The notes under the pieces were generated by a model that saw only the letters and a list, made by a program, of their open reading frames with translations, did no database searches and had not been told where the DNA came from. This document shows positions 4,758 to 23,164 of a stretch of DNA of 64,000 nt, piece by piece; the first letter of the stretch is position 1; each line of letters begins with the position of its first letter. Source of the DNA: Fibrobacteria bacterium (GTDB lineage Bacteria; Fibrobacterota; Chitinivibrionia; Chitinivibrionales; FEN-1185); the NCBI GenBank assembly GCA_037447435.1, contig JBBIGR010000011.1, positions 45,002-109,001 on the forward strand, in the 5' to 3' direction. Made by a program: the position numbers and the translations under genes.

Positions 4758-5621
4758 TCAGTTGCCAATTTTATAGGTTGTTCGGAATTTCCAAAGAGGA
4801 GAACCTTTTGCAAAATGAGGCATGAGCCTGCCTCGAGCAAGGGTATGCGAAAAATAGGGTTGGCGAACTGCGCGTGCAATAATATCCTGAACCGAGTCAT
4901 ATGAATATGCACCCCACAACGGTATGATATCGGCAAAATTTTTTCCTTTTAATACGTACGACGTTGCATGGGTATACCCAACTTTCTTCGCAGCATTCCA
5001 AACTCGTTCGTCAACCCGCCCGAACGGGAAAGATATGCTTGTCACTTCCTTTGCTATGATATCCTCAAGAATTCTTTTTGAATCACACAATTCTTTTAAT
5101 AATTCGGAATCCGAGAGTAACGTTAAATTTGCATGTGTCAATGTATGGCTTCCGATTTCATGCCCGAGCGAACTGATTTCAATAATTTGGCTTCTCGTTA
5201 AGTGGGTTTGCTTCGGCAATGCGTCCCATGATGATGTTTTGCCAAGAAAGCCGGCTACAGGGAATACAGTCGTTTTTATTCCATGACGCTCGCAGATGGG
5301 CAATGCTTTTGAATGAAACGTATCAAACCCGTCATCAAAAGTCATTACTATGGAATTTCGACGAGACAACGGAGGTAATGATGAAAAATGAGAAACCGTT
5401 ACAAATCGAAACCCTTCACCACGAAGTCGGCAGAGAAGCGAGTCGAATTTGAATGAAGAATAATATGAACAATGCATTGCCGGAATATCAGAAATGGAAT
5501 GAAAAAGTAAACCGATGGGCCCGCTTGATCTTTTCTTTTTACCGAAAAATAAAACAGCGAGTATGCCGCATAAAAATGGAAAGGCAATAATGGAAAATAG
5601 TAATAAAAAAAGTATGTTCAT
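4758..5621 (-). CDS. Membrane-anchored polysaccharide deacetylase (NodB/CE4)
   Basis: N-terminal TM helix; TFDDG, EIGSHTLTH, FPFG motifs. Confidence 0.9.
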   Translation of the reverse strand: MNILFLLLFSIIAFPFLCGILAVLFFGKKKRSSGPIGLLFHSISDIPAMHCSYYSSFKFDSLLCRLRGEGFRFVTVSHFSSLPPLSRRNSIVMTFDDGFDTFHSKALPICERHGIKTTVFPVAGFLGKTSSWDALPKQTHLTRSQIIEISSLGHEIGSHTLTHANLTLLSDSELLKELCDSKRILEDIIAKEVTSISFPFGRVDERVWNAAKKVGYTHATSYVLKGKNFADIIPLWGAYSYDSVQDIIARAVRQPYFSHTLARGRLMPHFAKGSPLWKFRTTYKIGN

Positions 5622-8017: not shown

Positions 8018-9070
8018 TTAATCCTTTTTACTTATATCGCATTGGGATAATAATCCTTCTTTAACGAGCGCTGTAACATCGGGAGCGTGGAAACCTTTCT
8101 CAAAATGAAACTGTATTAATGCAATTCGCCGTTTTTGGTCGAATCTGTCCTGGGAATATTTTTCTTTAATGGTCAAACATTGATCGACTCGATTTCTGAG
8201 AACCGTCTTTTGCAAAAAGAAAGAAGCCGCTGAAATGCCTGCAATTGCTGCAATGATCATAATAACGGTTGAAAGCGCATAAATTGAATTTTCCCATGAG
8301 GAGGTTTGTTCGCGAGCGGCAGGTTTTGCAAGTGGAGATTGCTTAACAGATGAAGGAGCGATTTCAGACTCCATCCATAGCCCGAAGATTATTTCATACA
8401 TCCTGTAAGTAAAAAATACCGATTTTTCGCAAATCGAGCCGACGGAAGATGTCCCGTCTATCAATGAATGAACATAGCCGACGGGATCGTACAACGGTGA
8501 TCCAAGCGGAGATGTAGTCTTTTTTCTCGAACCGTTTGGAGAAATTGAAAAAACGGTTTCGTCGGAAATGTTACGATGCATTCTTTTCCACTCATCCGAT
8601 CTGCGCATAGCTTCCATGGTGATAGCATCGGCAGGAAACATGACGCCCGCAATAATGTATTCATCCATACTTTCTAATGAATCAAATCTGTATTGGCCGT
8701 CGTCCCATAAAAAAAGGCTGCACGCTAAGTCTTCAATGCTCATTTTTAAAAGCGAAATCAACTCCTCGCTTGTAAGGTAGTTTCTGCTCGTCAATTCCTG
8801 CGAAAACAATCGCATTTCACCTTGACATAAAATAAGAAGTTCGTTGAGTTCGGCTTCCGAATATCGTTTGGCGAGTATTAAATAGTTGAATAAGAATGTT
8901 TGTAAATTGCTGTCGGCGTTTCCTGCGGCAACAATTTTCCCCTGTGAAAAAATCACAAAACCTTCCTCTTGGCCGTACGAAAGTACCAGTTGTCCGGTTT
9001 TCCCGTCATGAGAAATCAATTGGAAAATATCCGCCAATTGAAATTCACGCAAGCTGCCCCTTAAAGCCAT
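8018..9070 (-). CDS. DUF4388 (PatA-N-like) domain membrane protein
   Basis: MALRGSLREFQLADIFQLI..DGKTGQL N-terminus, LFLWDDGQYRF, MEAMRRSDEW; one C-terminal TM helix. Confidence 0.85.
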   Translation of the reverse strand: MALRGSLREFQLADIFQLISHDGKTGQLVLSYGQEEGFVIFSQGKIVAAGNADSNLQTFLFNYLILAKRYSEAELNELLILCQGEMRLFSQELTSRNYLTSEELISLLKMSIEDLACSLFLWDDGQYRFDSLESMDEYIIAGVMFPADAITMEAMRRSDEWKRMHRNISDETVFSISPNGSRKKTTSPLGSPLYDPVGYVHSLIDGTSSVGSICEKSVFFTYRMYEIIFGLWMESEIAPSSVKQSPLAKPAAREQTSSWENSIYALSTVIMIIAAIAGISAASFFLQKTVLRNRVDQCLTIKEKYSQDRFDQKRRIALIQFHFEKGFHAPDVTALVKEGLLSQCDISKKD

Positions 9071-9071
9071 A

Positions 9072-11177
9072 TTATTCTCCCCGAATTTTCATTTCTTTAA
9101 CAAGCAAAGATGCTGCGCGCCCGATAAAAAACGCGTTATACAAAACGCACAAGACAAAAAACGGCAAAATAACTCCATGTAAAAGCCACGATGGAAAAAC
9201 AATGGCTGGGAAGAGAATGAATGAGTAAATTCCATAAACGATGCTTGTTAAAAGTAGGATGGGAATCGACAGCCACATCGTCGAATTTCTTTGGACCATT
9301 CCTGCACCGGGAAAAACAACATCGAGGATCAGGGCCCGCAGAGAAGAAAGACGTACGCTTTTAAATTGGATCTTCGACATTATTCTTTGCCGGATGCTTT
9401 CGTTGCGGATATGTTGGGTCGAGTTAAAGCAATCCTGGCAAATTCCTCCTCGTTTGCATTTACGGCAAATAGGTGTCTGGCACAGCTTGCAAGAATAAAT
9501 TTTCTTGACAACATCGCGGGACCAAACGGTCATATCCGATACTATCAGGATGCAAAAAAGAATAAGTGAAAGTATTGCATAAATAAAGAAGGAAAAACCA
9601 AAAAAAGTGACGCCGAACCTTTTGTCAACGCCTTGCGAATGGTTTGCGGAATACGTGAAAATATGTTTCCAAAAGTAGCCCGGAGTATAATCGGGTGATA
9701 TTAACTGCCTGGCGATGGGCCAATCTTTGGAAAAAAAATCATCGCTTATTTTAATATGGGAATTTATCAGGAGTGGATTTATCCTTGCTGCTTTGGAAAT
9801 ATACTCCATACCTTTTGCTGTTTCCATTGCATTAAAAAAATATTGGCCGCAATTAAAATAGGCTGGCGCAAAATTAAAATTTGATTCGATGCATTCGAGA
9901 TAGGTGTTTTTCGCTTCATTCAGCTGGCCGGATTGGTACAAAACATTTCCGAGAACGGTGAGTACGACCGGGTCTGTTGGAGCCAATTGCTGCGCTTGTC
10001 TTATGTGAGATAACGCATTTTGGGTATCTTGCTTCCTTAAATATGAAACTGCCATGCCCGTATGAATCAAAAAATTCGACGAATTTGTTTGTGTTGACTT
10101 TTGTAAATATTCCTCAAATTCAGGATAATATCCTTCGTCGAGCGATTTTTTTAATAACATCGGTGCGCTTGCAGGGTCATTGCACATGTAAAACATATCG
10201 TCGACCTTTAAATTTAAAGGATATAGCATGAAAATTCCCAAGACTATACCTCCAAGGACCTTGTCGCGACCGTGCAAATGGCGCCAAAGGAGGAAAAAAG
10301 TGATCCAAATCCATGCGGTAAATCCAATAAATATCAAAGCGAAGAACAGTGCGCTCGATAATAAAACCCTGGTTTTAATGCTATATTTTTTGGGAAGCAA
10401 CTCCGAAACCGAATGCAATGATTGGGGGAGGTATTTTGCCAGCAAAGTACCAATAATTCCTACGACAAAAAATTCGAATACAATGGTAAGCCAGGTGTGT
10501 AATTGGTAAACAAGTTCCAATTGAATTTCCCATGAATTCAATACCTTTTCGTACAGATCCTTAATTTTTAAAAAAGCATTTTGGGGGTTTGGGTAGAGGT
10601 TCGATTTAATATCTAATATCAATGGCCATATGCAATTCCTGTCGAATATGCCTGCCCAAGATCTCTGGGAACCGTTTAATGAGCTTGTCGAGGAATAAAC
10701 ATCGTTATACAAAAGGATTTGGCTAACTAATGGCGCCGATTGGATACCGCGCATCAAGGACAATAGCCTCAATTTTGTAAGACATTTTTCCTGCCACAAA
10801 GGTAAACCGCAGCGTTCAAATTCCAAAGATAATGCAAAAATCGATCCGGGATCCGATTTGGTTGCGGAAATGGCTTTCGAAAACCAAATAGAAGAAACAG
10901 ATGCGGTATCATTGCTGTTTGCTAATCCGATGCAAAAACAATACCATACCGACATTGTGTCAAAAGTTAATGTATTTACGTTGATGGAAAACCCTGAAGC
11001 CGGATACAGGGATAATCGTGTTGAGTCTAAGCCGGTCAATTTAAATACGCTATCCCGGGTGGTAAGAGCGGAAATGAATTCGGATTCCCAAAGAATAGGC
11101 AATTCACGGGCTGTCGATCGAATGACCGACAACGAAATAATTATGAGAAGCGCACAGGAAATAAAACGATTTTTCAT
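9072..11177 (-). CDS. Polytopic membrane protein with TPR repeats and Cys zinc finger
   Basis: Signal peptide, several TM segments, TPR helices (LGNVLYQSG, AYFNCGQYF), CKLC-x4-CRKC-x5-CQDC, FPGAG. Confidence 0.75.
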   Translation of the reverse strand: MKNRFISCALLIIISLSVIRSTARELPILWESEFISALTTRDSVFKLTGLDSTRLSLYPASGFSINVNTLTFDTMSVWYCFCIGLANSNDTASVSSIWFSKAISATKSDPGSIFALSLEFERCGLPLWQEKCLTKLRLLSLMRGIQSAPLVSQILLYNDVYSSTSSLNGSQRSWAGIFDRNCIWPLILDIKSNLYPNPQNAFLKIKDLYEKVLNSWEIQLELVYQLHTWLTIVFEFFVVGIIGTLLAKYLPQSLHSVSELLPKKYSIKTRVLLSSALFFALIFIGFTAWIWITFFLLWRHLHGRDKVLGGIVLGIFMLYPLNLKVDDMFYMCNDPASAPMLLKKSLDEGYYPEFEEYLQKSTQTNSSNFLIHTGMAVSYLRKQDTQNALSHIRQAQQLAPTDPVVLTVLGNVLYQSGQLNEAKNTYLECIESNFNFAPAYFNCGQYFFNAMETAKGMEYISKAARINPLLINSHIKISDDFFSKDWPIARQLISPDYTPGYFWKHIFTYSANHSQGVDKRFGVTFFGFSFFIYAILSLILFCILIVSDMTVWSRDVVKKIYSCKLCQTPICRKCKRGGICQDCFNSTQHIRNESIRQRIMSKIQFKSVRLSSLRALILDVVFPGAGMVQRNSTMWLSIPILLLTSIVYGIYSFILFPAIVFPSWLLHGVILPFFVLCVLYNAFFIGRAASLLVKEMKIRGE

Positions 11178-12738: not shown

Positions 12739-12996
12739 TTAGCCCTGAAGTTTATTTACATGAGCATAAAGACGAGATTTTTTATTCGATGCGTTGTTTT
12801 TATGGATAAGACCGCTACCAGCGCATTTGTCGATAAAAGAAACTGCTTGAGAAAGATGCGCTGATGCATTTTTTTTATCTTTAGCATCTAAAACGTGGCG
12901 GATTACAGTTCTCAATGTGGACTGATCGCTTCTGTTTTTAAGATTGGCTTTTTTGCTTTTACGAACATGTTTTTCACATGCTTTATGTTGCGGCAT
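12739..12996 (-). CDS. rpsT: 30S ribosomal protein S20
   Basis: MPQHK..K..R...K..L.NR...S.LRT, IDK...G.IHKNNA..KKSRL; AAGGAG RBS before ATG 12996. Confidence 0.93.
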   Translation of the reverse strand: MPQHKACEKHVRKSKKANLKNRSDQSTLRTVIRHVLDAKDKKNASAHLSQAVSFIDKCAGSGLIHKNNASNKKSRLYAHVNKLQG

Positions 12997-13336
12997 TGAC
13001 TGCACTCCTTAATTCATTCAGGTAAGACGGTAAATTATGAATAACGTAATACGCTAAAATATATTTAATCTTAAAGATAAGTCAAATATTGGGAACTTAA
13101 AAATTTCAAATATTTTTTACTCCGATAATCCGGAGCTTCGCAAGCGGATCGTTTTTGATGAGATTATATCTAAGCGAAGAGTCCCCTGTAAGTAACGGCC
13201 ATGGTACCGAGTGGATAAAATTAATATAGATTCCAATCTTCAATAGCATATCGATTAAAAAATTAAGGTATTTTAAATTCCGCAATGATACATTCAAAAA
13301 AATGAATCGCTTAAAAGTGAAATTTCCGATACCAAA

Positions 13337-14416
13337 ATGAAAAACGGACCCGAAAAAGAATTTCCTTATACGGAGTTGTGCGGCGCGCTACATCTTCATA
13401 CGACCTTTTCGGATGGAGGCGTGACGTTTCCGGAATTAATTGAAACCGCAAATGAAGTCGGATTACGTTACATTGTTGTTACCGACCATATGTCTCTTGC
13501 GGGAAAAGAAAAAGGATACGAGGGATTTCATGGGAATCTTTTCGTTTGTGTCGGCTATGAACACAACGATAAAAATAATAAAAACCATTATTTGGCTTTG
13601 GGAACCCAATCGGTAATTGCGCAGCAAAATTCCGTTCAGGACTATATAAACGAAATAAAAATTGACGGAGGAATTGGTTTTTGCGCTCACCCGGTTGAAA
13701 AAAGAAATTATTTGGAATCATACCCTCCTTATCCATGGACGCAATGGAATGCGACGGGGTATGATGGCTTTGAGCTCTGGAACCAAATGTCGGATTGGCT
13801 TGAAAATTTAAAAAGTAAATTCCATTTTTTTAAGCTATTGTATCCTCGCAGATTCCTTGTTGAAATCAGAAAAGAAATGCTTGCTATATGGGATGAATCG
13901 AACCGAACACGATTCGTGAGCGGGATCGGAGGGGTTGATGCGCACACGATGAAAATAAAAATCGGAATTTTCCCCCGTACCGTTTTCCCGATAAAAGTCG
14001 AATTAAAAGGGATACGAACCCATATATATTTGAAAGAACCGTTGCCCAAAAATGATCCCGGCTTGGCAAAAAAAAGAATTTTGGATTCATTAAAAAACGG
14101 ACATGGATTCATCAGTAATTTTAGACGTCGGGACGCCGCAGGAACTTGCATATGTATGGAAACCGCAAACGGCTCGATTCTTTGCCCCGGTAATCACGAT
14201 GTGTCAATTGACTTGCCAGTAAAACTTCAAGTGAGTTTGCCAACCAGCGCCGATGTAAGGCTCGTAAAAAACGGCAAAGTGATCCAAACGATAAATGGGA
14301 AAAAGTTATCTTTCGACATTAAGGAAAAAGGTCTGTATAGGGTGGAAGCCTGGCTTCAAAACCATGCGTGGATATATTCAAATCCGTTTTGCGTTGGCGA
14401 ATATCCTTTATGGTGA
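13337..14416 (+). CDS. PHP-domain (CehA/McbA-like) metallohydrolase
   Basis: HLHTTFSDG, TDH, AHP, GGVDAH, C-terminal YRVEA..WIYSNP. Confidence 0.85.
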   Translation: MKNGPEKEFPYTELCGALHLHTTFSDGGVTFPELIETANEVGLRYIVVTDHMSLAGKEKGYEGFHGNLFVCVGYEHNDKNNKNHYLALGTQSVIAQQNSVQDYINEIKIDGGIGFCAHPVEKRNYLESYPPYPWTQWNATGYDGFELWNQMSDWLENLKSKFHFFKLLYPRRFLVEIRKEMLAIWDESNRTRFVSGIGGVDAHTMKIKIGIFPRTVFPIKVELKGIRTHIYLKEPLPKNDPGLAKKRILDSLKNGHGFISNFRRRDAAGTCICMETANGSILCPGNHDVSIDLPVKLQVSLPTSADVRLVKNGKVIQTINGKKLSFDIKEKGLYRVEAWLQNHAWIYSNPFCVGEYPLW

Positions 14417-15378
14417 AAATAAACCGGTTTTCAATTTTATTTGATGCGATTTTTCTATGTAGACCCGTTTTATTAGTCCCGGTGTGGGTTTTTTGTCTGT
14501 TTGGATATTTTTCAGGGATAAATTCCCCGAAAGAATTTTCTATTTCGGCAATATGGCACATGTCAATTCGCGAGTGTTTTTGGATCTTTATATTTTCTTT
14601 ATCCGTAGGCTCCGTTTATGTGTTAAACCAAATTAATGACAGAAAAGTAGATGCGCTCAATGGAGGCTTCGCGTTGCTTATTAAAGGAAAAATTCCCTTA
14701 TGGGTAGCATGGGCGACCACCTTTCTTCTTGCAGGAATTTCAATCGTTCTTCCCATGCTGTGGTGTCCGAGACTGGTTCTTTGGTCCTTATATTCCCTAA
14801 TTCTTGGCATTATTTATTGTATAAAGCCAATGTATTTTACCGGTAGGCCGATTTTGGATTTCACAACAAATGCTTTAGGCTACGGTGTAGTTTCGTTTGG
14901 CGTAGGCTGGTTGTTAGCTGGTCAAACTTTCGATATGAATTTTATTAAAGCGTGTTGCCCCTATTTTTTTATGATGTGTGCCGGCTCCATAAGTTCTACT
15001 TTGCCGGATTGTAACGGAGATAAGCTGGCAGGCAAAAATACAACCGCCGCAAAAATTGGCCTTATGCCGGCGCATTTGTTGTCTATGGGGTTTCTTCTAA
15101 TTGCATCAATTGAAGCTTATTTATTTCACGATTGGATTGCCCAGGCTTGTATTCTGGGGAGTTTTCCATTTTATACATTTTTAGTTTTTCGTAAAAAATC
15201 CCAAATAGCCATTGAGGCAACTTATAAAGGCGGATATATCGTTTGTATGCTGGTCTCATGCATAATTTTCCCTGCGATTGCTTTGGCAACCGGATTGGTT
15301 TTTGTATTAACCGTGTTGTATTTCAGGATCCGATATAATGTGTTATACCCTTCACTCGTTCCAATTAAACATGAATAA
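14410..15378 (+). CDS. UbiA family prenyltransferase
   Basis: Multi-TM; NQINDRKVDALN and LPDCNGDKLAGKNT Asp-rich motifs; overlaps both neighbours. Confidence 0.88.
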   Translation: MVKINRFSILFDAIFLCRPVLLVPVWVFCLFGYFSGINSPKEFSISAIWHMSIRECFWIFIFSLSVGSVYVLNQINDRKVDALNGGFALLIKGKIPLWVAWATTFLLAGISIVLPMLWCPRLVLWSLYSLILGIIYCIKPMYFTGRPILDFTTNALGYGVVSFGVGWLLAGQTFDMNFIKACCPYFFMMCAGSISSTLPDCNGDKLAGKNTTAAKIGLMPAHLLSMGFLLIASIEAYLFHDWIAQACILGSFPFYTFLVFRKKSQIAIEATYKGGYIVCMLVSCIIFPAIALATGLVFVLTVLYFRIRYNVLYPSLVPIKHE

Positions 15379-16390
15379 ATTGCATTTATTTTCCCTGGCA
15401 ATACTTTGCATGTTTGTTGGGCACGCTCTGTGTTTTGTACTTCAAAACACTCAAAAAGAGTACGTCGATTCTATTATGACAAATATAATGAATTGCAGAT
15501 TCGATTCGGCCGATAGCCAATGCGACCGATTAATTAGCAACGATACACAGGATCCTTTAGGATTAGTGATGCGAATGTCCTCATTTGCATTTTGGGATCT
15601 TGATTGTGATCATCCTGCCGATACAACACAATTTTTAGATTTGTATAAAAAAACCTCTTCTAAAATTATTGCATATGAATCCCGATATGGTGCGTCTTCC
15701 TATTCTAAAACGTTAAAAGGATTTTCAAAAGCCGTTCTTGCCTGCTATGATCTTTGGCATAAAAGCTATTTGTCGGGCCTTAATATCGGTTTTGGAGCTC
15801 TTGATGATTTAAAGGAAGCAAAAAGAATTGATGTGGAAAATACAGATGCCGACTTCTTTATCGGACTTTACAATTACACTCGTGCAGATATGAAAAAAAT
15901 GTTTTGGTGGGCTCTTTTCTGGTATTCCGGAGACAAAGAATCCGGAATTAAAAGTATACTGATGTGCAAAAAAAACGGGCAAATTATTAAACCGGTCGCT
16001 GCCTTGGTTCTTGCCGAGCTATGGATACGGGAAAAAAAATATTCTGAGGCGAAACACCTGATCAAAGAATTGGAAACAGCCTTTCCTAAAAGCAGGTTCG
16101 TAAAATGGACACATGCGAAGTATTTCGAGTCTCAAAACGATTTATCGTCAGCGGCGTCTTTATACGGCGAACTTGCGGATGAATATTCTAATTTGCCAAA
16201 AGCAATTAAAAATGAGCTTGCAGCCCGATTAAAAGAATCGGCACTGTTTTTTGAAGCAAATAATTTTGCTGGTTCGAAAGCTGCTGCAAGTAAAATTATT
16301 TCTTATAAAAACAACGTTTCTGATCCGCTTATTAAACAAGCTGTTAGAGATGCAGAAAAAATAATAAGAAAAATTAATGCCAAATCCTAA
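15371..16390 (+). CDS. Exported alpha-helical/TPR-like protein
   Basis: Signal peptide; DADFFIGLYNY and GDKESGI helical repeat-like segments. Confidence 0.7.
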   Translation: MNKLHLFSLAILCMFVGHALCFVLQNTQKEYVDSIMTNIMNCRFDSADSQCDRLISNDTQDPLGLVMRMSSFAFWDLDCDHPADTTQFLDLYKKTSSKIIAYESRYGASSYSKTLKGFSKAVLACYDLWHKSYLSGLNIGFGALDDLKEAKRIDVENTDADFFIGLYNYTRADMKKMFWWALFWYSGDKESGIKSILMCKKNGQIIKPVAALVLAELWIREKKYSEAKHLIKELETAFPKSRFVKWTHAKYFESQNDLSSAASLYGELADEYSNLPKAIKNELAARLKESALFFEANNFAGSKAAASKIISYKNNVSDPLIKQAVRDAEKIIRKINAKS

Positions 16391-16406
16391 AAAAAGGTGT
16401 TTTTTT

Positions 16407-16574
16407 ATGGTAAGCGTTTCTCAAAACAAGTGCGATGAGTGCGGTACGTGTATTGGCGTTTGCCCAAGTGATGCGCTTCTGTTGGATGATCGGTTACGTG
16501 TCAATGAACATCGATGTACCGGTTGCGGTGTTTGTGTGGAAATTTGCCCGTTTGGCGCCTTACAGCTTCAATAA
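16407..16574 (+). CDS. 2x[4Fe-4S] ferredoxin
   Basis: CDECGTCIGVCP and CTGCGVCVEICP motifs, 55 aa. Confidence 0.93.
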   Translation: MVSVSQNKCDECGTCIGVCPSDALLLDDRLRVNEHRCTGCGVCVEICPFGALQLQ

Positions 16575-16607
16575 AACGATTTATTCTAAGACGAAAGAAC
16601 TTGTTTT

Positions 16608-17768
16608 ATGATGAAAAATAATAGCTTTGATATTGCGGTTATTGGTGGTGGCCCTGCAGGAATCATGGCTGCAACATATGCGGCAAAAAATGGCAGATCT
16701 GTATGCCTTATCGACAGAAAAAGCAAACCCGGGTTCCCAGTTAGATGCGGCGAGGCGACGAGTTTGGATGGTTTTTTAAATATTGCCGAGTTCCAAAAAG
16801 ATTGGATCCTTTCAACCGTAACGTCGATGCAATTAATCGCTCCGTCGGGGACAGTAGTGACAGTTCCAAACGACTATGGCGCCTATATTATCGATCGCCA
16901 TAAAATGGAAACGGATTTAACGCAAGAAGCGATAAAATCAGGGGTTGCCTTTCTTCCGCATACGACCATCACTACTGTGGAAAAAGATAAAAATGAATAT
17001 ATCTGTTCCTCGAAGAATGTACGTATTATTGCACAATGTCTGATTCTTGCCGAAGGCATAGAATCACGTCTTGCTCGTCAATTGGGATGGACGACTTTTC
17101 TTGAGCCTCACGATGTGCATTCATGTGCATTTGCAAGGGTGGAACATCCCGACGTTATTCAAAACACATGTGTATTTTATCTGGGAAAACAATATGCTCC
17201 TGCAGGATATGTTTGGGTTTTTCACAGGGGTGGATCAACTGCGAATGTTGGATTAGGGACTTTAGGTTCTTTTTGTAAACCCGGACTTTCAAAAGAATTG
17301 TTGTTAAATTTTATAGACTCAAAATTTCACGGAGCAAAGGTATCACAGTTGCATTGCGGAGGCGTTCCAATGGGGAAGTATATTTCCCCGTTGGTAAAAG
17401 AGGGTGTACTTCTTTGCGGCGATTCGGCTCGAATGGTGAATTGCATAAACGGCGCAGGAATTTCCTATTCATTGTTCGCAGGAAAAAACGCCGGTATCGT
17501 ATCCGCTTTGGCATTCAAAGAGGGGAAATGCGATTATTCCTTACTTAAAAAATATGATAAAATATGGGGAAAGTCTTTCGGAAAACAACAATTGCGATCC
17601 TATTCGGTGAAAGAAATTATGGTTGGATTTTCCGACAAATTTATCGATGATATGGCTGCTATTGTTACAAAAAATAAAAACAGCAAACCGAGTATACTGA
17701 AAATATTTATCAGAGTATTCATCAGGTATCCGTTTCACCTATTTAAAGTGATCAAGCTGCTTAAATAA
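16608..17768 (+). CDS. Geranylgeranyl reductase family flavoprotein (DGGR-like)
   Basis: GGGPAG, PVRCGE, PAGYVWVF, ANVGLG, GDSA..VN..NGAGI. Confidence 0.88.
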   Translation: MMKNNSFDIAVIGGGPAGIMAATYAAKNGRSVCLIDRKSKPGFPVRCGEATSLDGFLNIAEFQKDWILSTVTSMQLIAPSGTVVTVPNDYGAYIIDRHKMETDLTQEAIKSGVAFLPHTTITTVEKDKNEYICSSKNVRIIAQCLILAEGIESRLARQLGWTTFLEPHDVHSCAFARVEHPDVIQNTCVFYLGKQYAPAGYVWVFHRGGSTANVGLGTLGSFCKPGLSKELLLNFIDSKFHGAKVSQLHCGGVPMGKYISPLVKEGVLLCGDSARMVNCINGAGISYSLFAGKNAGIVSALAFKEGKCDYSLLKKYDKIWGKSFGKQQLRSYSVKEIMVGFSDKFIDDMAAIVTKNKNSKPSILKIFIRVFIRYPFHLFKVIKLLK

Positions 17769-17781
17769 ATAGCCCATTTCG

Positions 17782-17810
17782 TTGACTGGGTTTGCCATTG
17801 ATGGTATAAT
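17782..17810 (+). promoter_or_regulatory. sigma70-type promoter for the HDOD-cheX cluster
   Basis: TTGACT-17 nt-TATAAT with extended TG. Confidence 0.7.
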
Positions 17811-17849: not shown

Positions 17850-18743
17850 ATGAATATCATTCAACGAATGTATGAAATTCATGAATTGCCTACTCTGCCC
17901 GAGGTAATTCTTAAAATTCAAGCCCTCATTAATTCCGATGAAGGAAGCGCAGGTTCACTTTCTCGAATTATTGCTCAGGATCCGTCTCTTACAACGAAAA
18001 TCCTGAAGGTTGCGAATTCATCCTATTTCGGCCAAACATATCAGCGGATTTCTTCGCTATCCCTTGCAATTGCACGAATTGGTTTCAATGAAGTGCGAAA
18101 CATAGTGACTGCAATTTCCTGTATAAAACAATTTTCAAAGCGCTCTTCGATCCTTGATTACAAATTATTCTGGCGCCACTCATTGACAGCTGCATATCTC
18201 ACCAAAATAATTACAGATTCTTATCCGGACAAATTTTCCTCCGAAGATAAGCAATATTTGTTTTTGACGGGATTGTTGCATGATATCGGGATTTTGATTT
18301 TCGATCAATTTTTCCATGAAGATTTTGAAATCATATTGGATTATGCAATTAAAAATGAGGTTTCATATCTAGCTGCCGAACAAGCCGTGTTTGGAAAGGA
18401 GTCGCATCAAGTTGTTGGCAGTGCATTATTGGAATTCTGGAAATTGGATGCTGCGGTAATATCGGGTGTGAGGTTTCATCATTTCGGATTCGAAAAATCG
18501 TCGAGTCATCACAGATTGATTTCTATGGTAAGCTGTCTGGTAGAATATATCCTTTGCAATTGCAGTTTGGGTTCTTTTGAAGGATCCATTGCAGAACTTG
18601 ACAAATCAATCGCCGATACCTTTAAAATAACTTCGGAAGGCATGGCCTTTTTATTCGCTGCCGCAGAAGCATATGTCGAAAAGTCGGATCTTGTTATTGC
18701 CATGGGGATGTCTGGGTCTTCAAATGAATTTAAAATGATTTAA
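17850..18743 (+). CDS. HDOD domain protein
   Basis: LPTLPEV, QDPSLTTKILKVANS, FWRHS, GLLHDIG. Confidence 0.92.
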   Translation: MNIIQRMYEIHELPTLPEVILKIQALINSDEGSAGSLSRIIAQDPSLTTKILKVANSSYFGQTYQRISSLSLAIARIGFNEVRNIVTAISCIKQFSKRSSILDYKLFWRHSLTAAYLTKIITDSYPDKFSSEDKQYLFLTGLLHDIGILIFDQFFHEDFEIILDYAIKNEVSYLAAEQAVFGKESHQVVGSALLEFWKLDAAVISGVRFHHFGFEKSSSHHRLISMVSCLVEYILCNCSLGSFEGSIAELDKSIADTFKITSEGMAFLFAAAEAYVEKSDLVIAMGMSGSSNEFKMI

Positions 18744-18769
18744 CAATTTTAAAAAAGAGGCTATAAATC

Positions 18770-19228
18770 ATGAATGTTGCTTATATTAACCCTTTTATTT
18801 CTGCAACTATGAATTTTTTTAAAACAATGTTGCGTGTTGATGCAGCTCCTGGAAAACCCGGCTTGAAACAGGAACCGTTTCCTTCTCACGATATTTCGGC
18901 GGTAATTGGCTTATCGGGGGATGCACAAGGTTCTGTTGCATTGAGCTTTCCTAAAGTCGCTGCATTAAAAATCGTTTCCGCAATGTTGGGGGCCGAAATC
19001 AAAATAGTCGGGCCAGAATTAACTGACGGAATTGGTGAAGTTGTGAATATAATCGCAGGAAATGCCAAAGGAGATTTAACTGCCTTTAAGCTTTCTATTT
19101 CATTGCCAAATATAATTATCGGTAAAGACCATGTCGTGGTTTCTCCAACGGGTGCGCCAACGATCGTTGTTCCATTTACTACCGTTTATGGAAGCTTTTC
19201 GATGGAAGTATCCTTGAAAACAAATTAG
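18770..19228 (+). CDS. cheX: CheX family phosphatase
   Basis: YINPFI, IGLSGDAQG, DGIGEVVNIIAGNAK (ExxN), ISLP.II.G. Confidence 0.93.
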   Translation: MNVAYINPFISATMNFFKTMLRVDAAPGKPGLKQEPFPSHDISAVIGLSGDAQGSVALSFPKVAALKIVSAMLGAEIKIVGPELTDGIGEVVNIIAGNAKGDLTAFKLSISLPNIIIGKDHVVVSPTGAPTIVVPFTTVYGSFSMEVSLKTN

Positions 19229-19244
19229 GAGTGTAAATCCTGGT

Positions 19245-21911
19245 TTGCAATTTTGGTTGTTTCAACGGGAATTATACGCTGTGAATGTATTTGCACTCAT
19301 ATCGCTTTTTGCGTGTGCGGTTTCCATTATTCTGGCCGGAATTGTTTATTCGGAAGACAGAAAAAACCATGTAAGCAAAATATTCTTGCTTCTTTGCTGC
19401 TTTGAGATTTTCTTTTGCTTTACGGATTTTATGGTAAAACAATCTGAAAGCAAAGCAAGTCTCGTTTTCTGGGTACGGTGCGAATTTTTATGGCCTGTCA
19501 TATATGCGTCGATGCTTCACTTTGCTTTGGCCTTTACCAAAGTACCAACTGCAAATAATAAAAAGCACCTGTCGATTTTATACGGATTTTCGATTGTGAT
19601 AAGTTTTGTTTTTTTATTTGCAATAAAGGATATTGCCGTCGAAAAAGATTTTTGGGGTTTAGCCATCAAGCGAGACAGCGCATTGCCAATCCCAATGATT
19701 ATAGTTTCTGCCTATGCCGGCGGGATGGGAATTGCTGTTTCATTGATCGTGTTTATATACTATTTAAAAAACGAAGATTTACTAATAAAAAAACAGTCCT
19801 TGAATTTATGTTTGGCTTTTTTAATTCCCACGTTAACCGCTGTCGGTTCAGAAGTGGTTCCTGCAATCCTTCACTTTCATTCTCCAAGCCTTGAGACCCC
19901 TTCGTATTGTTTGGTCTCATTGATAGTCTTTTATTCGATCCGAAAACATAAATTGTTCTTTTTAAATCCCGCTTTTGCAGCGGAAAACATTATTTCAACC
20001 ATTGACGATCTGTTTGTTCTCATGAATCCCGAAAGAATTGTCGTTTCTGTCAATAAAGCCATTTGTGATCTTCTTTGCTATGAAAAGGAGGAATTAATTG
20101 GTAAACCCTTTAGCATGCTTTTCCCCGTTTCAATAAACGATAGTTCAATTGTAGGTATGGATAATCGAACTGAGAAAATAAAGGTGTTTCTCGCATACGA
20201 TATGAGGAAACGGGAAGCCCATTTCATCTCTAAAAACAACAAAATAGTTCCTGTCGCTGTTTCGTTCTCAACGCTTAAAGACAAGTATAACTCGGTTGCC
20301 GGGTATGTCTGCTTTGCAAACGACAATACCGAACGAATAAAATATGAAGAAGACCTCCGAGTTGCGAAAGAACATGCCGAAATTGCCAATAAAGCGAAAA
20401 GTGAATTTTTATCAAATATGTCGCATGAAATACGGACGCCGATGAATGCGGTTATTGGGTTTGCGGAATTATTAAATGATACCGAGTTGAATGAACGTCA
20501 AAAGGAATATCTCGACATTATCTGTAATAGTGGGGAATTGCTTGTTGCGCTTATTAACGACATTTTAGACATATCAAAAATCGAAGCCCGGCATTTAACC
20601 TTGGAAAATATTGATTTCGATTTCGAATATTTATTGGTAAGCTTAGTGAAAATCGTCAAACAAAAAGCCTCGATGACTGCTGTTGAAATAAAACTGAATT
20701 ATGGTGAAGGAGTTCCTAAAACTTTCAATGGCGATCCGACGCGAATACGCCAAGTTATTTTGAATTTGCTCAATAATGCTGTTAAATTTACGCATGCAGG
20801 AGAAATAAAAATCGACGTAGCAATATCTAATAACAATAAAAATACAACCATCGTCGAAAAAAATATACTAAACCTTGTCATATCAATCAAAGATACGGGG
20901 ATAGGAATTCCAAAAGAAAAGCAGGCTGAAATATTCGAAGCTTTTGTTCAAGCGGATGCATCAACTACTCGAAAGTATGGCGGTACTGGACTTGGACTCG
21001 GTATTGCTCGTGCGCTTATCGAATTGATGGGAGGAAACATTTCAGTACGTTCCGAAGAAGGAAAAGGCAGCGAGTTCATTGTTTTATTACCACTAACTAT
21101 CGGGCAAAATTCCACGGAAGATATAGTTCTGTCAACGGTTAATTCTTTGGCACAAAAAAATGTTGTTATTGTCGATGACAACGAAAATGCTCGACGCGTT
21201 ATTGCCGGATTTTGTGAAAAAATTAATATGCCGATAATTAAAACATTTTCTTCAGGGATCGAAGCGATTAAATGGTTCGAGGATGCAACAGAAAAAGTTG
21301 ATGTTATTTTATGCGATATTATGATGCCGAAAATGAACGGGTGGGAGTTTGCGATTCAAATCAGGAAATTGTCAGTTGGAGAAAACATCAAATTGGTAGC
21401 CTTGACATCGGACGCAATTCCGGGTGTTGCAAGCAAGTCCGAAATTTCCGGATTTGACGCGATGTTAACAAAACCGTTGCTAAGAAATAATTTTTATCAG
21501 GTATTGCAGGCTATGTTCGGCGATTTTAGAAAAGAGAAAAAACAAATTATTACAGGTCATTTAGTGCAGGAATTGATATCCCGGCACATACATGTCCTTG
21601 TTGCGGAAGATAATGAAGTTAATCAAAAACTCATGAAAATATTATTAACAGGAATGGGTTGTACTTTTGAAATGGTTTCTAACGGTCAAGAAGCGATAAA
21701 TAAAGTTAGAAAAAACGACAATTTTGATATAATACTCATGGATGTCCAAATGCCTATAATGGATGGGTTGGAAGCGACTTCAATTTTGCGAAATGCAATG
21801 CATGTAGAAATTCCTATCATTGCTTTAACAGCATATGCAATGAAAGAGGATCGTAATAAATGCATTTTATCCGGGATGAATGATTTCATCGATAAACCAA
21901 TTGATTCTTAA
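19245..21911 (+). CDS. Hybrid sensor histidine kinase (7TM-PAS-HisKA-HATPase-REC-REC), last helix apparently truncated by a stop
   Basis: NMSHEIRTPMN, NLLNNAVKFT, DTGIGI, GGTGLGL, two receivers (CDIMMP, MDVQMP). Start uncertain (TTG 19245 or GTG 19281). Confidence 0.92.
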   Translation: MQFWLFQRELYAVNVFALISLFACAVSIILAGIVYSEDRKNHVSKIFLLLCCFEIFFCFTDFMVKQSESKASLVFWVRCEFLWPVIYASMLHFALAFTKVPTANNKKHLSILYGFSIVISFVFLFAIKDIAVEKDFWGLAIKRDSALPIPMIIVSAYAGGMGIAVSLIVFIYYLKNEDLLIKKQSLNLCLAFLIPTLTAVGSEVVPAILHFHSPSLETPSYCLVSLIVFYSIRKHKLFFLNPAFAAENIISTIDDLFVLMNPERIVVSVNKAICDLLCYEKEELIGKPFSMLFPVSINDSSIVGMDNRTEKIKVFLAYDMRKREAHFISKNNKIVPVAVSFSTLKDKYNSVAGYVCFANDNTERIKYEEDLRVAKEHAEIANKAKSEFLSNMSHEIRTPMNAVIGFAELLNDTELNERQKEYLDIICNSGELLVALINDILDISKIEARHLTLENIDFDFEYLLVSLVKIVKQKASMTAVEIKLNYGEGVPKTFNGDPTRIRQVILNLLNNAVKFTHAGEIKIDVAISNNNKNTTIVEKNILNLVISIKDTGIGIPKEKQAEIFEAFVQADASTTRKYGGTGLGLGIARALIELMGGNISVRSEEGKGSEFIVLLPLTIGQNSTEDIVLSTVNSLAQKNVVIVDDNENARRVIAGFCEKINMPIIKTFSSGIEAIKWFEDATEKVDVILCDIMMPKMNGWEFAIQIRKLSVGENIKLVALTSDAIPGVASKSEISGFDAMLTKPLLRNNFYQVLQAMFGDFRKEKKQIITGHLVQELISRHIHVLVAEDNEVNQKLMKILLTGMGCTFEMVSNGQEAINKVRKNDNFDIILMDVQMPIMDGLEATSILRNAMHVEIPIIALTAYAMKEDRNKCILSGMNDFIDKPIDS

Positions 21912-21964
21912 AAGTTGAAACGAAAATTGGTTTCCTGGTCACGTCATAATCAAAAAGGGGCAAC

Positions 21965-22288
21965 ATGACTTCAAATGTAAATGCAATATTACAGAGGTTG
22001 GGTATTTCAAAGGAAATTTATTATGAGCTTTTATCCGATTTTGTTGGCCTTGCACAAGAAAAATATTTGCAATTAGAAAAAGCGGCTGAGCAAAACTTGC
22101 TTGAGGAGATTAAAAAAATAGCTCATTCAATCAAGGGTAGTGCGGCTAATTTAGGTGTTGAATTAATTGCGGAAACAGCAAAAAAAATCGAAACTGATGC
22201 TGCTACAGGTGAATGTTCAGAACGGGTAAAAGAAAATATTTCCGTCTTAGGCAGACAAATAATTTTGTGTAAAAATGAAAAACAATAA
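21965..22288 (+). CDS. Hpt phosphotransfer protein
   Basis: AHSIKGSAANLG. Confidence 0.92.
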   Translation: MTSNVNAILQRLGISKEIYYELLSDFVGLAQEKYLQLEKAAEQNLLEEIKKIAHSIKGSAANLGVELIAETAKKIETDAATGECSERVKENISVLGRQIILCKNEKQ

Positions 22289-22303
22289 ATTAAAAACTTT
22301 CCC

Positions 22304-23164
22304 ATGGATAATAAAATGAACGAGTTGGAAAAAACGCTTGGTACCATAAAAGACCTCCCCACGTTGCCGGAAGTAATCAGACAAGTGGGTACGCTTATCG
22401 AAAATGATGAAACAGATATAAAAAAAATAGCCGACGTCATTATGACAGATGCAGCGTTGTCGATGCGAATCATCAGGTTGGTCAATTCTGCATTTTACGG
22501 GCTTAGAAATCGGGTAACTTCCTTGCACCAGGCCGTAGTTGCATTGGGATTACGTTCGGTGTATAATCTTATGCTTGGTCTTTCGGTAGTAAAAATGTTT
22601 AAGAATAATGAATCGGAGTTTTTTAATCCTGTTCTTTTGTGGCAACATTCGTTCGGTTGCGCATTGGCAAGTGAAAAGCTCGCTACAATTTTGAAATATC
22701 CTTATCCTGATGAAACATTTATTGGCGGTTTGCTTCATGATATGGGCAGATTGGCTTTAGATCAATTCGCTCATGATCAATTTGCCTTAGCCTGTCAGAA
22801 TAGTAACGACAATAAAATTTCACTCATTGCAGCCGAAAAAGAAATTTTTGGTTTTGATCATGCAGAGGCTGGAGCATGGCTTTCGGAGCGTATGAATATT
22901 CCCGATTCTTTTATCAGCGTGATTCGATATCACCACAATTCATCAAACCTGCCGAAAGAAGTTGAAACATACCGTGGATTAATATCTATTACGGCATTTG
23001 CAAATCGAATTTGCTTAATGGAAAAAATCGGCACAAGCGGCGAAACAATTATGGACAATGAATCTGTAGCTTTGCCGTTCGATATATCTGATTTTGACAT
23101 CCAAATTTTGGGTAAATCTGTGCGGGAAATTATTTCTGCTACTATGAAAAAGTGGGGATACTAA
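22304..23164 (+). CDS. HDOD domain protein
   Basis: LPTLPEV, LVNSAFYG, LWQHS, GLLHDMG, DHAEAG. Confidence 0.92.
   Translation: MDNKMNELEKTLGTIKDLPTLPEVIRQVGTLIENDETDIKKIADVIMTDAALSMRIIRLVNSAFYGLRNRVTSLHQAVVALGLRSVYNLMLGLSVVKMFKNNESEFFNPVLLWQHSFGCALASEKLATILKYPYPDETFIGGLLHDMGRLALDQFAHDQFALACQNSNDNKISLIAAEKEIFGFDHAEAGAWLSERMNIPDSFISVIRYHHNSSNLPKEVETYRGLISITAFANRICLMEKIGTSGETIMDNESVALPFDISDFDIQILGKSVREIISATMKKWGY

Follow-up and report, generated by a model that had tools for sequence, protein, structure and literature searches.

In a 64,000-nucleotide stretch of DNA from a Fibrobacteria bacterium (assembly GCA_037447435.1, contig JBBIGR010000011.1, positions 45,002 to 109,001 of the forward strand; hereafter the window), the listing of open reading frames (ORFs) places five frames on the plus strand between positions 13337 and 17768. 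They code for a PHP-family hydrolase, a membrane prenyltransferase of the UbiA superfamily, an exported tetratricopeptide repeat (TPR)-like protein, a ferredoxin (Fd) and a geranylgeranyl reductase (GGR). In our own numbering of genomes (G), contigs (C) and loci (L) the window is C11:45002-109001 of G000, an assembly of 5.05 Mb in 96 contigs that is 99.6% complete. A first-pass annotation of the window had read the five genes as an operon for a saturated isoprenoid ether lipid or another reduced prenyl conjugate, with the UbiA protein as a candidate synthase of digeranylgeranylglyceryl phosphate (DGGGP). We find that the genes form a conserved, modular cluster, that the reductase is supported as one of the archaeal lipid-GGR type, and that the UbiA protein, here called UbiA2, belongs to an orphan family distinct from the DGGGP synthases. 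The features of the locus are:

13006..13336, no strand assigned: intergenic region, presumed control region of the operon, shared with the divergent rpsT gene
13337..14416, plus strand: PHP-family metal-dependent hydrolase of 359 aa, PHP barrel with a C-terminal beta-sandwich, predicted phosphoesterase
14413..15378, plus strand: UbiA2, membrane prenyltransferase of the orphan NQ-type UbiA family, 321 aa; ORF open from 14368
15371..16390, plus strand: exported TPR-like protein of ~339 aa; ORF open from 15338, with the signal-peptide start likely at 15371
16377..16574, plus strand: small 2x[4Fe-4S] ferredoxin of 65 aa, or of 55 aa if read from the ATG at 16407
16608..17768, plus strand: GGR-family flavoenzyme of archaeal lipid-GGR type, 386 aa
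17782..17810, plus strand: sigma-70-like promoter site at the start of the next unit (HDOD gene at 17850), recognized by consensus match only

With the starts chosen here (that of UbiA2, 14413, is taken from the database gene call), the PHP and UbiA2 frames overlap by 4-7 nt and the UbiA2 and TPR frames by 8 nt, followed by gaps of 16 and 33 nt, which bears out the tight linkage with two overlaps and two short gaps that had been described before. The promoter previously proposed at 17782 reads TTGACT-17-TATAAT (17782-17810), has 11 of 12 consensus matches and a TG extension, and is the top-scoring site between positions 12600 and 18000. On the other side, 331 nt separate the PHP gene from the start of rpsT (12739-13005, minus strand); a promoter scan of this interval found minus-strand sites but no plus-strand site with at least 9 of 12 matches.

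A search for homologues of the UbiA protein gave 112 matches, among which identity drops abruptly from 38% to 27-29%. To place the cluster in a wider context we scanned genome contigs with an alignment of the protein and obtained 59 related loci, three of them from WOR-3 and nearly all the others from metagenome-assembled genomes (MAGs) of Fibrobacterota. The named homologues carry the labels Chitinispirillaceae, Chitinispirillales or Chitinivibrionales, and a MAG labelled Chitinispirillum sp. carries the cluster. When neighbouring genes were scored by tblastn with the window proteins, the UbiA gene was found to be accompanied downstream by the TPR gene at 46 of the 59 loci, Fd at 44, GGR at 43 and the HDOD gene at 28, and upstream by the PHP gene at 35. 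At 43 loci UbiA2 is immediately preceded by another UbiA gene, UbiA1 (~327 aa); six loci (L023, L025, L027, L030, L038 and L060) have the order of the window without it, and the window's own genome lacks a UbiA1 orthologue, the best tblastn match there being UbiA2 itself at 26% identity. Overlapping or nearly abutting frames are kept across genera that share only 38-57% identity. The conserved order of the five genes is confirmed, and their linkage is beyond chance.

The phyletic distribution of the genes was then examined in a sample of 201 genomes of the phylum (one of which, G194, is flagged as unpublished and adds one count to the PcrB and GGR tallies; no claim depends on it). UbiA2, counted at an E-value of 1e-20 or better, is present in 71 of these; it occurs in 64 of the 80 other genomes of the same order and in none of the 78 genomes of family f10 or the 22 of family f15. 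By comparison, all 80 order genomes have a GGR match, which is of orthologue grade (E 1.3e-76 or better) in 78; the remaining two genomes are G121, which is 73% complete, and G029, which has UbiA2 together with only a distant GGR paralogue. Where UbiA2 is missing, Fd-GGR may stand alone (L086, L087, L088 and L092) or in the order PHP-Fd-GGR-HDOD (L090, genome G069). Conversely, the UbiA genes are found without Fd-GGR, as PHP-UbiA-TPR in L059 and as PHP-UbiA1-TPR-HDOD in L155, L158 and L185. The cluster therefore consists of three separable units, namely [PHP], [UbiA1-UbiA2-TPR] and [Fd-GGR]. This raises the possibility that the genes are neighbours by descent only, and that the hydrolase, the UbiA cassette and Fd-GGR share a direction downstream of rpsT while serving unrelated processes. 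The separation of the modules in both directions, with PHP staying by Fd-GGR in L090 and the cassette staying with PHP and HDOD in L155, L158 and L185, speaks for such a view, as does the fact that the TPR protein is one of several paralogues. We nevertheless consider it quite unlikely, given the persistence of the overlapping and abutting frames at the identities stated above and the independent re-association of relatives of UbiA2 with Fd-GGR and DGGGP synthase-like genes in distant lineages (L136, L141, L152 and L157; see below).

Membership of UbiA2 in the UbiA superfamily is clear (PF01040, 50.4 bits; cut-off 34.2), and no NCBIfam model comes near its cut-off on this protein, the best being PRK12875 with 40.3 bits against 205. 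The model for DGGGP synthase (DGGGPS; NF009521) gives 20.1 bits against a cut-off of 296, and the MenA models give 16-17 bits. An alignment of the orthologues displays two conserved motifs, NQIxDxxVDxxNxG and GSISSTLPDxxGDxxxxKxTTA. In the first Asp-rich motif, NQxxDxxxD, the residues N72, Q73, D76 and D80 are invariant, as are D199 and D203 of the second (D-x3-D); the N, D5 and D9 of the first motif are what we take to be its metal-binding positions. UbiA1, UbiA2, the WOR-3 proteins and the distant matches (one labelled Eisenbacteria) have in common the signature NQIxDxESDRxN, with glutamine at the second position, along with an N-terminal DxxFLLRPxLxxPVW and a C-terminal RxYYxxRFxxxYPS. We refer to these proteins as the NQ-type UbiA family (NQ-UbiA). 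A DGGGPS-like paralogue encoded elsewhere in the same genome lacks these signatures and carries the canonical NDIHDIETD instead.

A profile built from 28 UbiA2 orthologues was compared with the sequences in PDB and recovered AfUbiA of Archaeoglobus fulgidus best (PDB: 4tq3; 56.8 bits, E 1.8e-14), with the DGGGPS of Methanocaldococcus jannaschii (MjDGGGPS, PDB: 6m31) at 28 bits. The AlphaFold model of UbiA2 (pLDDT 89.2) adopts the UbiA fold, and its top 16 PDB matches are all UbiA-fold proteins. 4tq3 comes first (TM 0.64/0.72), and the matches to AfUbiA, DGGGPS, ApUbiA and the mycobacterial decaprenylphosphoryl-phosphoribose (DPPR) synthase all lie within TM 0.55-0.72, a range that does not tell substrates apart. 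In a tree of 50 rows, whose references are solely the paralogues from our own searches, the NQ family (41 rows, SH-aLRT 91) is separated from MenA, CtaB, the remaining paralogues and the DGGGPS-like clade (4 rows, 83), and UbiA2 forms a long-branched subclade within it. A search of 1.84 billion representative sequences with the profile retrieved 358 proteins at E 1e-30 or better, 2029 at 1e-10 and 9829 at 0.001, giving a family size of about 358 clusters at 50% identity. The ESM Atlas offered nothing beyond generic clusters of UbiA and TPR proteins without a functional name (from WOR-3, Fibrobacterota, Zixibacteria and Ignavibacteriota), and neither the UbiA family nor the operon appears in the titles and abstracts returned by our literature searches.

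These results bear directly on the proposal that UbiA2 is a DGGGP synthase or its equivalent, adding the second ether chain to geranylgeranylglyceryl phosphate (GGGP), so that the five genes would be the core of an archaeol-type pathway. It can draw on the intact Asp-rich motifs, presumed to bind Mg2+ and diphosphate, the adjacency of Fd-GGR, the presence of a GGGP synthase (GGGPS) in the genome and the fold match to MjDGGGPS (TM 0.61/0.68). We regard it as very improbable, in view of the NF009521 score, of the 28 bits on 6m31 as against 102 for the DGGGPS-like paralogue, which is kept in 74 of the 81 genomes of the order, and of the separation of the clades. Constraining the UbiA2 and DGGGPS-like rows to join costs 24.6 units of lnL and is rejected (p-AU 0.02; the test was set up after the tree had been seen, on a hypothesis that came from the first-pass annotation). 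Moreover, UbiA2 is missing from 16 of the 80 order genomes, all of which keep a GGR-family match, and NQ-UbiA and DGGGPS-like genes lie side by side in L152 and L157, and are therefore not alternatives. UbiA2 thus belongs to an orphan UbiA family and is neither a GGGP synthase nor the DGGGPS-like UbiA of its genome; the separate paralogue on C11 is the better candidate for the role once suggested for it. Nor does UbiA2 group with MenA or MqnP, as would be expected of an enzyme of quinone synthesis.

The reductase, by comparison, is a member of the GGR family (TIGR02032, 184.8 bits, or 185.5 in the genome search, cut-off 158.8; GGR_cat, PF22578, 61.5 bits, cut-off 27). It aligns over its full length with the Thermoplasma acidophilum enzyme (PDB: 3oz2; 159.7 bits, E 9.4e-46, residues 6-375 versus 4-387) and matches the Sulfolobus GGR with 56 bits. 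The motifs GGGPAG, PVRCGE and PAGYVWVFH are present, and PVRCGE recurs in 66 of the 75 closest homologues. Among the NCBIfam equivalogs, two of the three models for digeranylgeranylglycerophospholipid (DGGGPL) reductase (NF041160, NF041080 and NF041385) score highest, namely the Thermoplasmatales one (174.8 bits, cut-off 780) and a second (121.5, cut-off 580), ahead of BchP/ChlP (92.6, cut-off 343.3) and MenJ (66.8, cut-off 700); the third gives 57.9 bits (cut-off 700). PVRCGE and PAGYVWVF, in which a likeness to archaeal DGGGPL reductases had been recognized, are confirmed as present, and the ranking of the models speaks against a grouping of the reductase with MenJ. Outside Fibrobacterota its nearest relatives are from KSB1 and Ignavibacteriae (33-34% identity) and Methanoculleus (32-33%), which fits the statement in a passage of Villanueva et al. 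(2020, PMC7852524) that the GGRs of bacteria of the Fibrobacteres-Chlorobi-Bacteroidetes (FCB) group are close to euryarchaeal ones. Taken together, the sequence comparisons support an assignment of the reductase to the archaeal lipid-GGR type.

The ferredoxin that was already noticed next to the reductase has two CxxCxxCxxxCP motifs (Fer4, PF00037, 62.3 bits in two stretches; cut-off 21.1) and ends 33 nt upstream of the GGR gene. The pair is kept at 43 of the 59 loci, and Fd is found directly upstream of GGR also in genomes devoid of the UbiA cassette (L086-L090 and L092). By analogy with archaeal pairs, Fd is likely to be the electron donor of GGR. The genome encodes a second GGR-family paralogue (G000:C53:13778-14941, L010:1489-2652; 387 aa), which scores just over the TIGR02032 cut-off with 159.6 bits, has no ferredoxin alongside and is flanked by an HMGL-like gene and one related to AIR synthase; paralogues of this kind (~30% identity) are the sole GGR matches in families f10 and f15.

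The first-pass annotation had seen no GGGP synthase in the window and had made its reading depend on one elsewhere in the genome; such a gene is present at C12:89231-90004, next to alaS and recA (PF01884, 155.3 bits; TIGR01769, 228.7 bits, cut-off 161.55). The genome further codes for two polyprenyl synthases and seven UbiA-family proteins. Among the latter, the best DGGGPS candidate is C11:19252-20100, between rpsA/cmk and lspA, which matches 6m31 over its full length with 102.3 bits and gives 160.4 bits with PRK12884 and 143.3, 105.2 and 97.1 bits with NF009521, NF009522 and NF009512, all under the cut-offs. The other paralogues of UbiA2 are MenA, heme O synthase, two unclassified genes and a fusion of IspH with a UbiA-like domain. 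This last protein, encoded outside the window (G000:C47:25295-27055; L007:1417-3177, minus strand), is 586 aa long and combines a hydroxymethylbutenyl diphosphate (HMBPP) reductase domain (TIGR00216, 281 bits) with a UbiA-like membrane domain at its C-terminus (PRK12884, 40 bits); four small genomes of genus g6 have orthologues with 52-55% identity (L100, L101, L105 and L106), and the fusion would physically tie the last step of the methylerythritol phosphate (MEP) pathway to a prenyltransferase.

Across the order, PcrB/GGGPS is found in 74 of the 80 other genomes and the DGGGPS-like gene in 74 of 81. MenA exceeds its cut-off in only 6 of 81 genomes, and 17 of 81 have a match at E 1e-20 or better. 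In G069, a genome that is 91% complete, PHP-Fd-GGR and PcrB are present, and PF01040 matches one gene alone, the DGGGPS-like one. From this distribution and the gene content of G069 it follows that the products of GGGPS and DGGGPS, or geranylgeranyl diphosphate (GGPP), are the most economical substrates for Fd-GGR, and that quinone tailoring is unlikely to be its general role. A cluster that modifies a respiratory quinone or another aromatic prenyl conjugate, after the pattern of MenA/MenJ or ChlG/ChlP, was weighed because the best matches of UbiA1 and the distant NQ-family members, weak as they are, are to the (bacterio)chlorophyll synthase models (59-72 bits), because the GGR family includes MenJ and ChlP, and because the genome has a MenA gene. 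This we hold to be extremely improbable: the ChlG/BchG scores are far under their cut-offs of 212-313, the MenA and MenJ scores of UbiA2 and GGR are as low as given above, MenA is scarce in an order where 78 of 80 genomes have the operon-type GGR, and G069 has Fd-GGR without any MenA-like gene.

Two further observations concern the same genes. In genus g6, three genomes (G021, G033 and G129) have the UbiA1-UbiA2 cassette without a PcrB match and three others (G069, G077 and G133) show the reverse, while G037 has both and G159 neither. A displacement of PcrB by the cassette was set aside, because contig ends interrupt the DGGGPS-like gene of G021 and of G033, which makes assembly gaps likely. 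In G029 (contig C20) the DGGGPS-like gene (14895-15734) adjoins the PcrB/GGGPS gene (15806-16483) on the same strand; co-localization of GGGPS and DGGGPS is described in a passage of PMC7852524 as restricted to Cloacimonetes among bacteria.

With respect to the remaining two proteins, the hydrolase belongs to the PHP phosphoesterases (PF02811, 31.6 bits; cut-off 26.4). The metal-ligand positions HxH, DH, EH, H and DxH are invariant in 16 orthologues (H19, H21, D26, H51, E75, H76, H118, D201 and H203). The CehA/McbA model NF038032 covers residues 16-351 with 64.8 bits, under its domain cut-off of 80, and sequence searches against PDB gave weak matches to the N-terminal motif alone (at most 23.8 bits). 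The structural model (pLDDT 88.1) shows a PHP barrel followed by a beta-sandwich, and the nearest structures are 3e38 (BVU_3505, a two-domain PHP phosphoesterase; E 1.3e-10) and 2anu, both uncharacterized structural-genomics proteins. A function as a phosphatase is predicted and plausible. The N-terminus of the TPR-like protein reads as a signal peptide, and its TPR matches are weak and below cut-off. The protein is lost together with the UbiA genes in G069, has several paralogues in the window's genome, and aligns over its full length with TPR proteins encoded after NQ-UbiA genes in other phyla (L119 and L125). The notion that these are orthologous partners across phyla was weakened when the L125 and L119 proteins were found to match the paralogue on C39 better than the operon protein.

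To understand the company that NQ-UbiA keeps in other lineages, we scanned metagenomes with an alignment of the family and obtained 80 loci. At four of them (L136, L141, L152 and L157) the NQ-UbiA gene lies beside DGGGPS-like and Fd genes, in some with GGR and GGGPS. A polysaccharide deacetylase gene is adjacent to it at 17 of the 80 loci by tblastn, and at 15 of the 52 single-copy loci by ORF clustering. The principal arrangements are:

L152 and L157: LpxD, polysaccharide deacetylase, NQ-UbiA, DGGGPS-like gene, two small ORFs, Fd, GGR
L136: deacetylase, NQ-UbiA, a gene for a 576-aa protein, three small ORFs, DGGGPS-like gene, Fd, GGR, GGGPS
L141: an order similar to that of L136, up to Fd
Other loci: metallophosphoesterase, NQ-UbiA, Memo/AMMECR1 fusion
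Other loci: MsbA-like ABC transporter, GT9 heptosyltransferase, HAD hydrolase, NQ-UbiA, with DUF4388 and transmembrane TPR (TM-TPR) genes on the opposite strand
Other loci: LpxL-like acyltransferase, deacetylase, NQ-UbiA, TPR
Other loci: PglZ, NQ-UbiA, Yip1
WOR-3: IspG, SLBB protein, deacetylase (opposite strand), NQ-UbiA, AspRS

Two themes recur in these neighborhoods: a metal-dependent hydrolase of varying fold directly upstream of NQ-UbiA, and surroundings devoted to the synthesis of envelope lipids or lipopolysaccharide (LPS). In L152 (4625-5202) and L157 (2973-3622), one of the two small ORFs between the DGGGPS-like gene and Fd-GGR codes for a YafQ-type toxin domain; the GGR frame of L152 is spread over three ORFs, and the contig may carry frameshifts. 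The Memo-AMMECR1 fusion is a protein of 508 aa, encoded directly after NQ-UbiA at seven loci of one lineage (e.g. L123:6988-8511, L124:7014-8540 and L126:6981-8507), sometimes with a metallophosphoesterase similar to purple acid phosphatases upstream.

The same themes lend themselves to a different interpretation, in which UbiA2 is a lipid-phosphate glycosyl or pentosyl transferase similar to DPPR synthase. UbiA2 would then place a phosphosugar on a polyprenyl phosphate or an ether-lipid phosphate, and the product would be trimmed by the hydrolase. Saturation of the carrier, as known from dolichol, would fall to Fd-GGR, and the result would be a lipid-linked donor for modification of the envelope or LPS. 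The mycobacterial DPPR pathway pairs its synthase with a phosphatase, a logic that the upstream hydrolase mirrors, and such hydrolases, of differing folds, precede NQ-UbiA in many lineages (PHP, metallophosphoesterase, HAD, PglZ and polysaccharide deacetylase). DPPR synthase (PDB: 8j8j) is the second-best PDB match of the family profile (41 bits, E 1.2e-9) and a fold match (TM 0.60/0.65), and the LpxD, LpxL-like, MsbA-like and GT9 contexts and the periplasmic TPR partner also speak for it. However, the profile match covers only residues 52-138, with the first Asp-rich motif, and the DPPR-synthase models NF008976-8 give UbiA2 24.1, 19.5 and 17.4 bits against cut-offs of 234, 207 and 474. The HAD protein of the GT9 context may be the GmhB of heptose synthesis, polysaccharide deacetylases are not phosphatases, and no GT-C glycosyltransferase was seen in the loci. 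On balance we think this interpretation unlikely.

We favor as probable, though only modestly so, the reading that the locus is a modular isoprenoid-lipid operon, in which Fd-GGR saturates prenyl chains, while the orphan UbiA, the PHP hydrolase and the TPR protein make a further prenylated envelope lipid from the same pool. Reduced Fd would pass electrons to the FAD of GGR, as reported for Methanosarcina acetivorans, and GGR would hydrogenate the C=C bonds of geranylgeranyl chains, its likeliest targets being the GGGP- and DGGGP-type ethers made by the products of the housekeeping GGGPS and DGGGPS-like genes, or their precursor GGPP. Because its N-x3-D-x3-D and DxxxD motifs are intact, UbiA2 is predicted to bind a Mg2+-prenyl diphosphate at the cytoplasmic face, where it might alkylate an acceptor from the same lipid pool. 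The PHP protein may take off a phosphate, or an ester of that kind, from either the acceptor or the product, and the exported TPR protein may assist UbiA2. The outcome would be a saturated isoprenoid, perhaps ether-type, envelope lipid, probably a minor component and probably phosphate-bearing. Of the earlier reading, the saturated isoprenoid ether lipid is retained as a predicted product, on the strength of the archaeal-type GGR, Fd and the GGGPS gene; what has fallen away is the operon UbiA as its DGGGP synthase.

Several points weigh against this reading. The modules split both ways, so adjacency need not mean a single pathway; the cassette occurs without Fd-GGR at the four loci listed above, and G029 combines UbiA2 with a distant GGR paralogue. 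Outside Fibrobacterota, the neighbours of NQ-UbiA are more often lipid A/LPS genes (LpxD, LpxL-like, MsbA-like and GT9) than GGR. The reductase is far under every NCBIfam equivalog cut-off (at best 174.8 against 780), and the histidine to which the first-pass annotation drew attention in YVWVFH does replace the final proline of PxxYxWxFP (motif as given in a passage of PMC10821996), as it does in 24 of the 75 closest homologues. The earlier suggestion to look for CarS and glycerol-1-phosphate dehydrogenase (G1PDH) turned up neither in the 99.6% complete genome, the four weak PF13685 matches being AroB or Fe-alcohol dehydrogenases by NCBIfam. The lipids listed for Chitinispirillum alkaliphilum in a passage of PMC4814513 are an ornithine lipid, phosphoglycerol and phosphohexose lipids and two unidentified ones, with ordinary fatty acids. 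That passage reports no isoprenoid ether lipid, from a method aimed at fatty acid methyl esters and branched glycerol dialkyl glycerol tetraethers (GDGTs). The report weighs against any abundant archaeal-type lipid. Finally, the substrates and products of all five proteins are read from sequence and gene context.

A more specific proposal, which we put forward as rather unlikely, is that the NQ-type proteins (UbiA1, UbiA2 and their WOR-3 and metagenome relatives) are a third membrane transferase of a bacterial isoprenoid ether-lipid pathway. Acting on the lipid phosphate after GGGPS and DGGGPS, such an enzyme would, together with the hydrolase, build a head group or a third alkyl substituent in place of the missing CarS route. 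If so, these bacteria would have an archaeal-like envelope lipid with saturated chains and an as yet undescribed structure.

That FCB bacteria, genera of Fibrobacteres among them, carry archaeal-type lipid genes is already published. Passages of Villanueva et al. (2020, PMC7852524) describe archaeal-like ether-lipid genes in the FCB group, with GGGPS and DGGGPS in Ca. Cloacimonetes and euryarchaeal-type GGRs, and Fibrobacteres (Chitinispirillum and Chitinivibrio) are listed among the holders of archaeal lipid genes in Coleman et al. (2019, PMC6431249). The new elements here are an orphan UbiA family of NQ type, which is tandemly duplicated in Fibrobacterota and has PHP and TPR partners, and the insertion of this family before a near-universal Fd-GGR pair. 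One question of the 'lipid divide' is whether FCB bacteria themselves produce archaeal-type lipids, and published work on it rests on GGGPS and DGGGPS. The near-universality of Fd-GGR in one order of Fibrobacterota in which GGGPS and the DGGGPS-like gene are common makes chain saturation plausible, and the prenyltransferase that travels with the reductase represents an uncharacterized family found beside ether-lipid and lipid A/LPS genes in other phyla. If this family turned out to catalyze a new step, a new class of isoprenoid envelope lipids in bacteria would be defined; should it add none, the locus would be one more example of a published idea. The cultured relatives Chitinispirillum and Chitinivibrio make the prediction testable.

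The wider surroundings of the operon in the window deserve a brief description. Downstream, positions 17850-23161 hold a signalling run of an HDOD gene, CheX, an 888-aa hybrid histidine kinase with two receiver domains, Hpt and a second HDOD gene; the first HDOD gene follows GGR in 28 of the 59 related loci, yet has a promoter-like site of its own. Upstream, on the minus strand and 2-8 kb from the operon, are genes for a polysaccharide deacetylase (4761-5621), a DUF4388 protein (8021-9070) and a TM-TPR protein (9075-11177) of 701 aa with a Cys-rich segment. The same three families also flank NQ-UbiA in unrelated metagenome lineages (L133, L144, L160, L180 and the deacetylase loci), and the window deacetylase is the best match of its genome to the deacetylases of L152 and L125 (32-33% identity). 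These shared surroundings hint at an older and wider neighborhood.

Comparison with known systems places the locus as follows. It resembles the gene set described for Cloacimonetes in that an FCB-group host has GGGPS, a DGGGPS-like UbiA and a euryarchaeal-type GGR, with CarS missing in both; unlike that set, the GGGPS and DGGGPS-like genes sit apart among housekeeping genes, no G1PDH was found in the genome, the cluster holds an extra orphan UbiA with PHP and TPR partners, none of which is mentioned in those passages, and the system is known here from genes alone. MjDGGGPS shares with UbiA2 the fold and a second motif of the same type (DxxGDxxxGxxT), but it scores 28 bits with the NQ profile, as against 102 with the other paralogue of the genome, and UbiA2 and that paralogue fall in separate clades. 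AfUbiA, labelled 'UbiA homolog' or 'Prenyltransferase' in PDB, is the best match of UbiA2 in both sequence and fold; it differs in having only ~20% identity, the NQ family being set apart by DxxFLxRP...PVW, YFRxRxxxxYPS and the glutamine at the second motif position. We know of no established native substrate for AfUbiA. The T. acidophilum GGR (3oz2) aligns over its full length with the operon enzyme and has in common with it GxGxxG, PVRCGE with the catalytic cysteine and PAGY(I/V)WVF, although the operon GGR ends the PxxYxWxFP motif with H, not P. As presented in parts of a review (PMC9385802), GGRs are promiscuous and accept GGPP, GGGP and DGGGP, the synteny of GGR and ferredoxin is largely conserved among Euryarchaeota, and the M. 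acetivorans GGR is more active in E. coli with a ferredoxin-like protein whose gene adjoins its own. The operon described here has the same pairing of GGR with a small ferredoxin gene, with Fd upstream of GGR and in a bacterial host.

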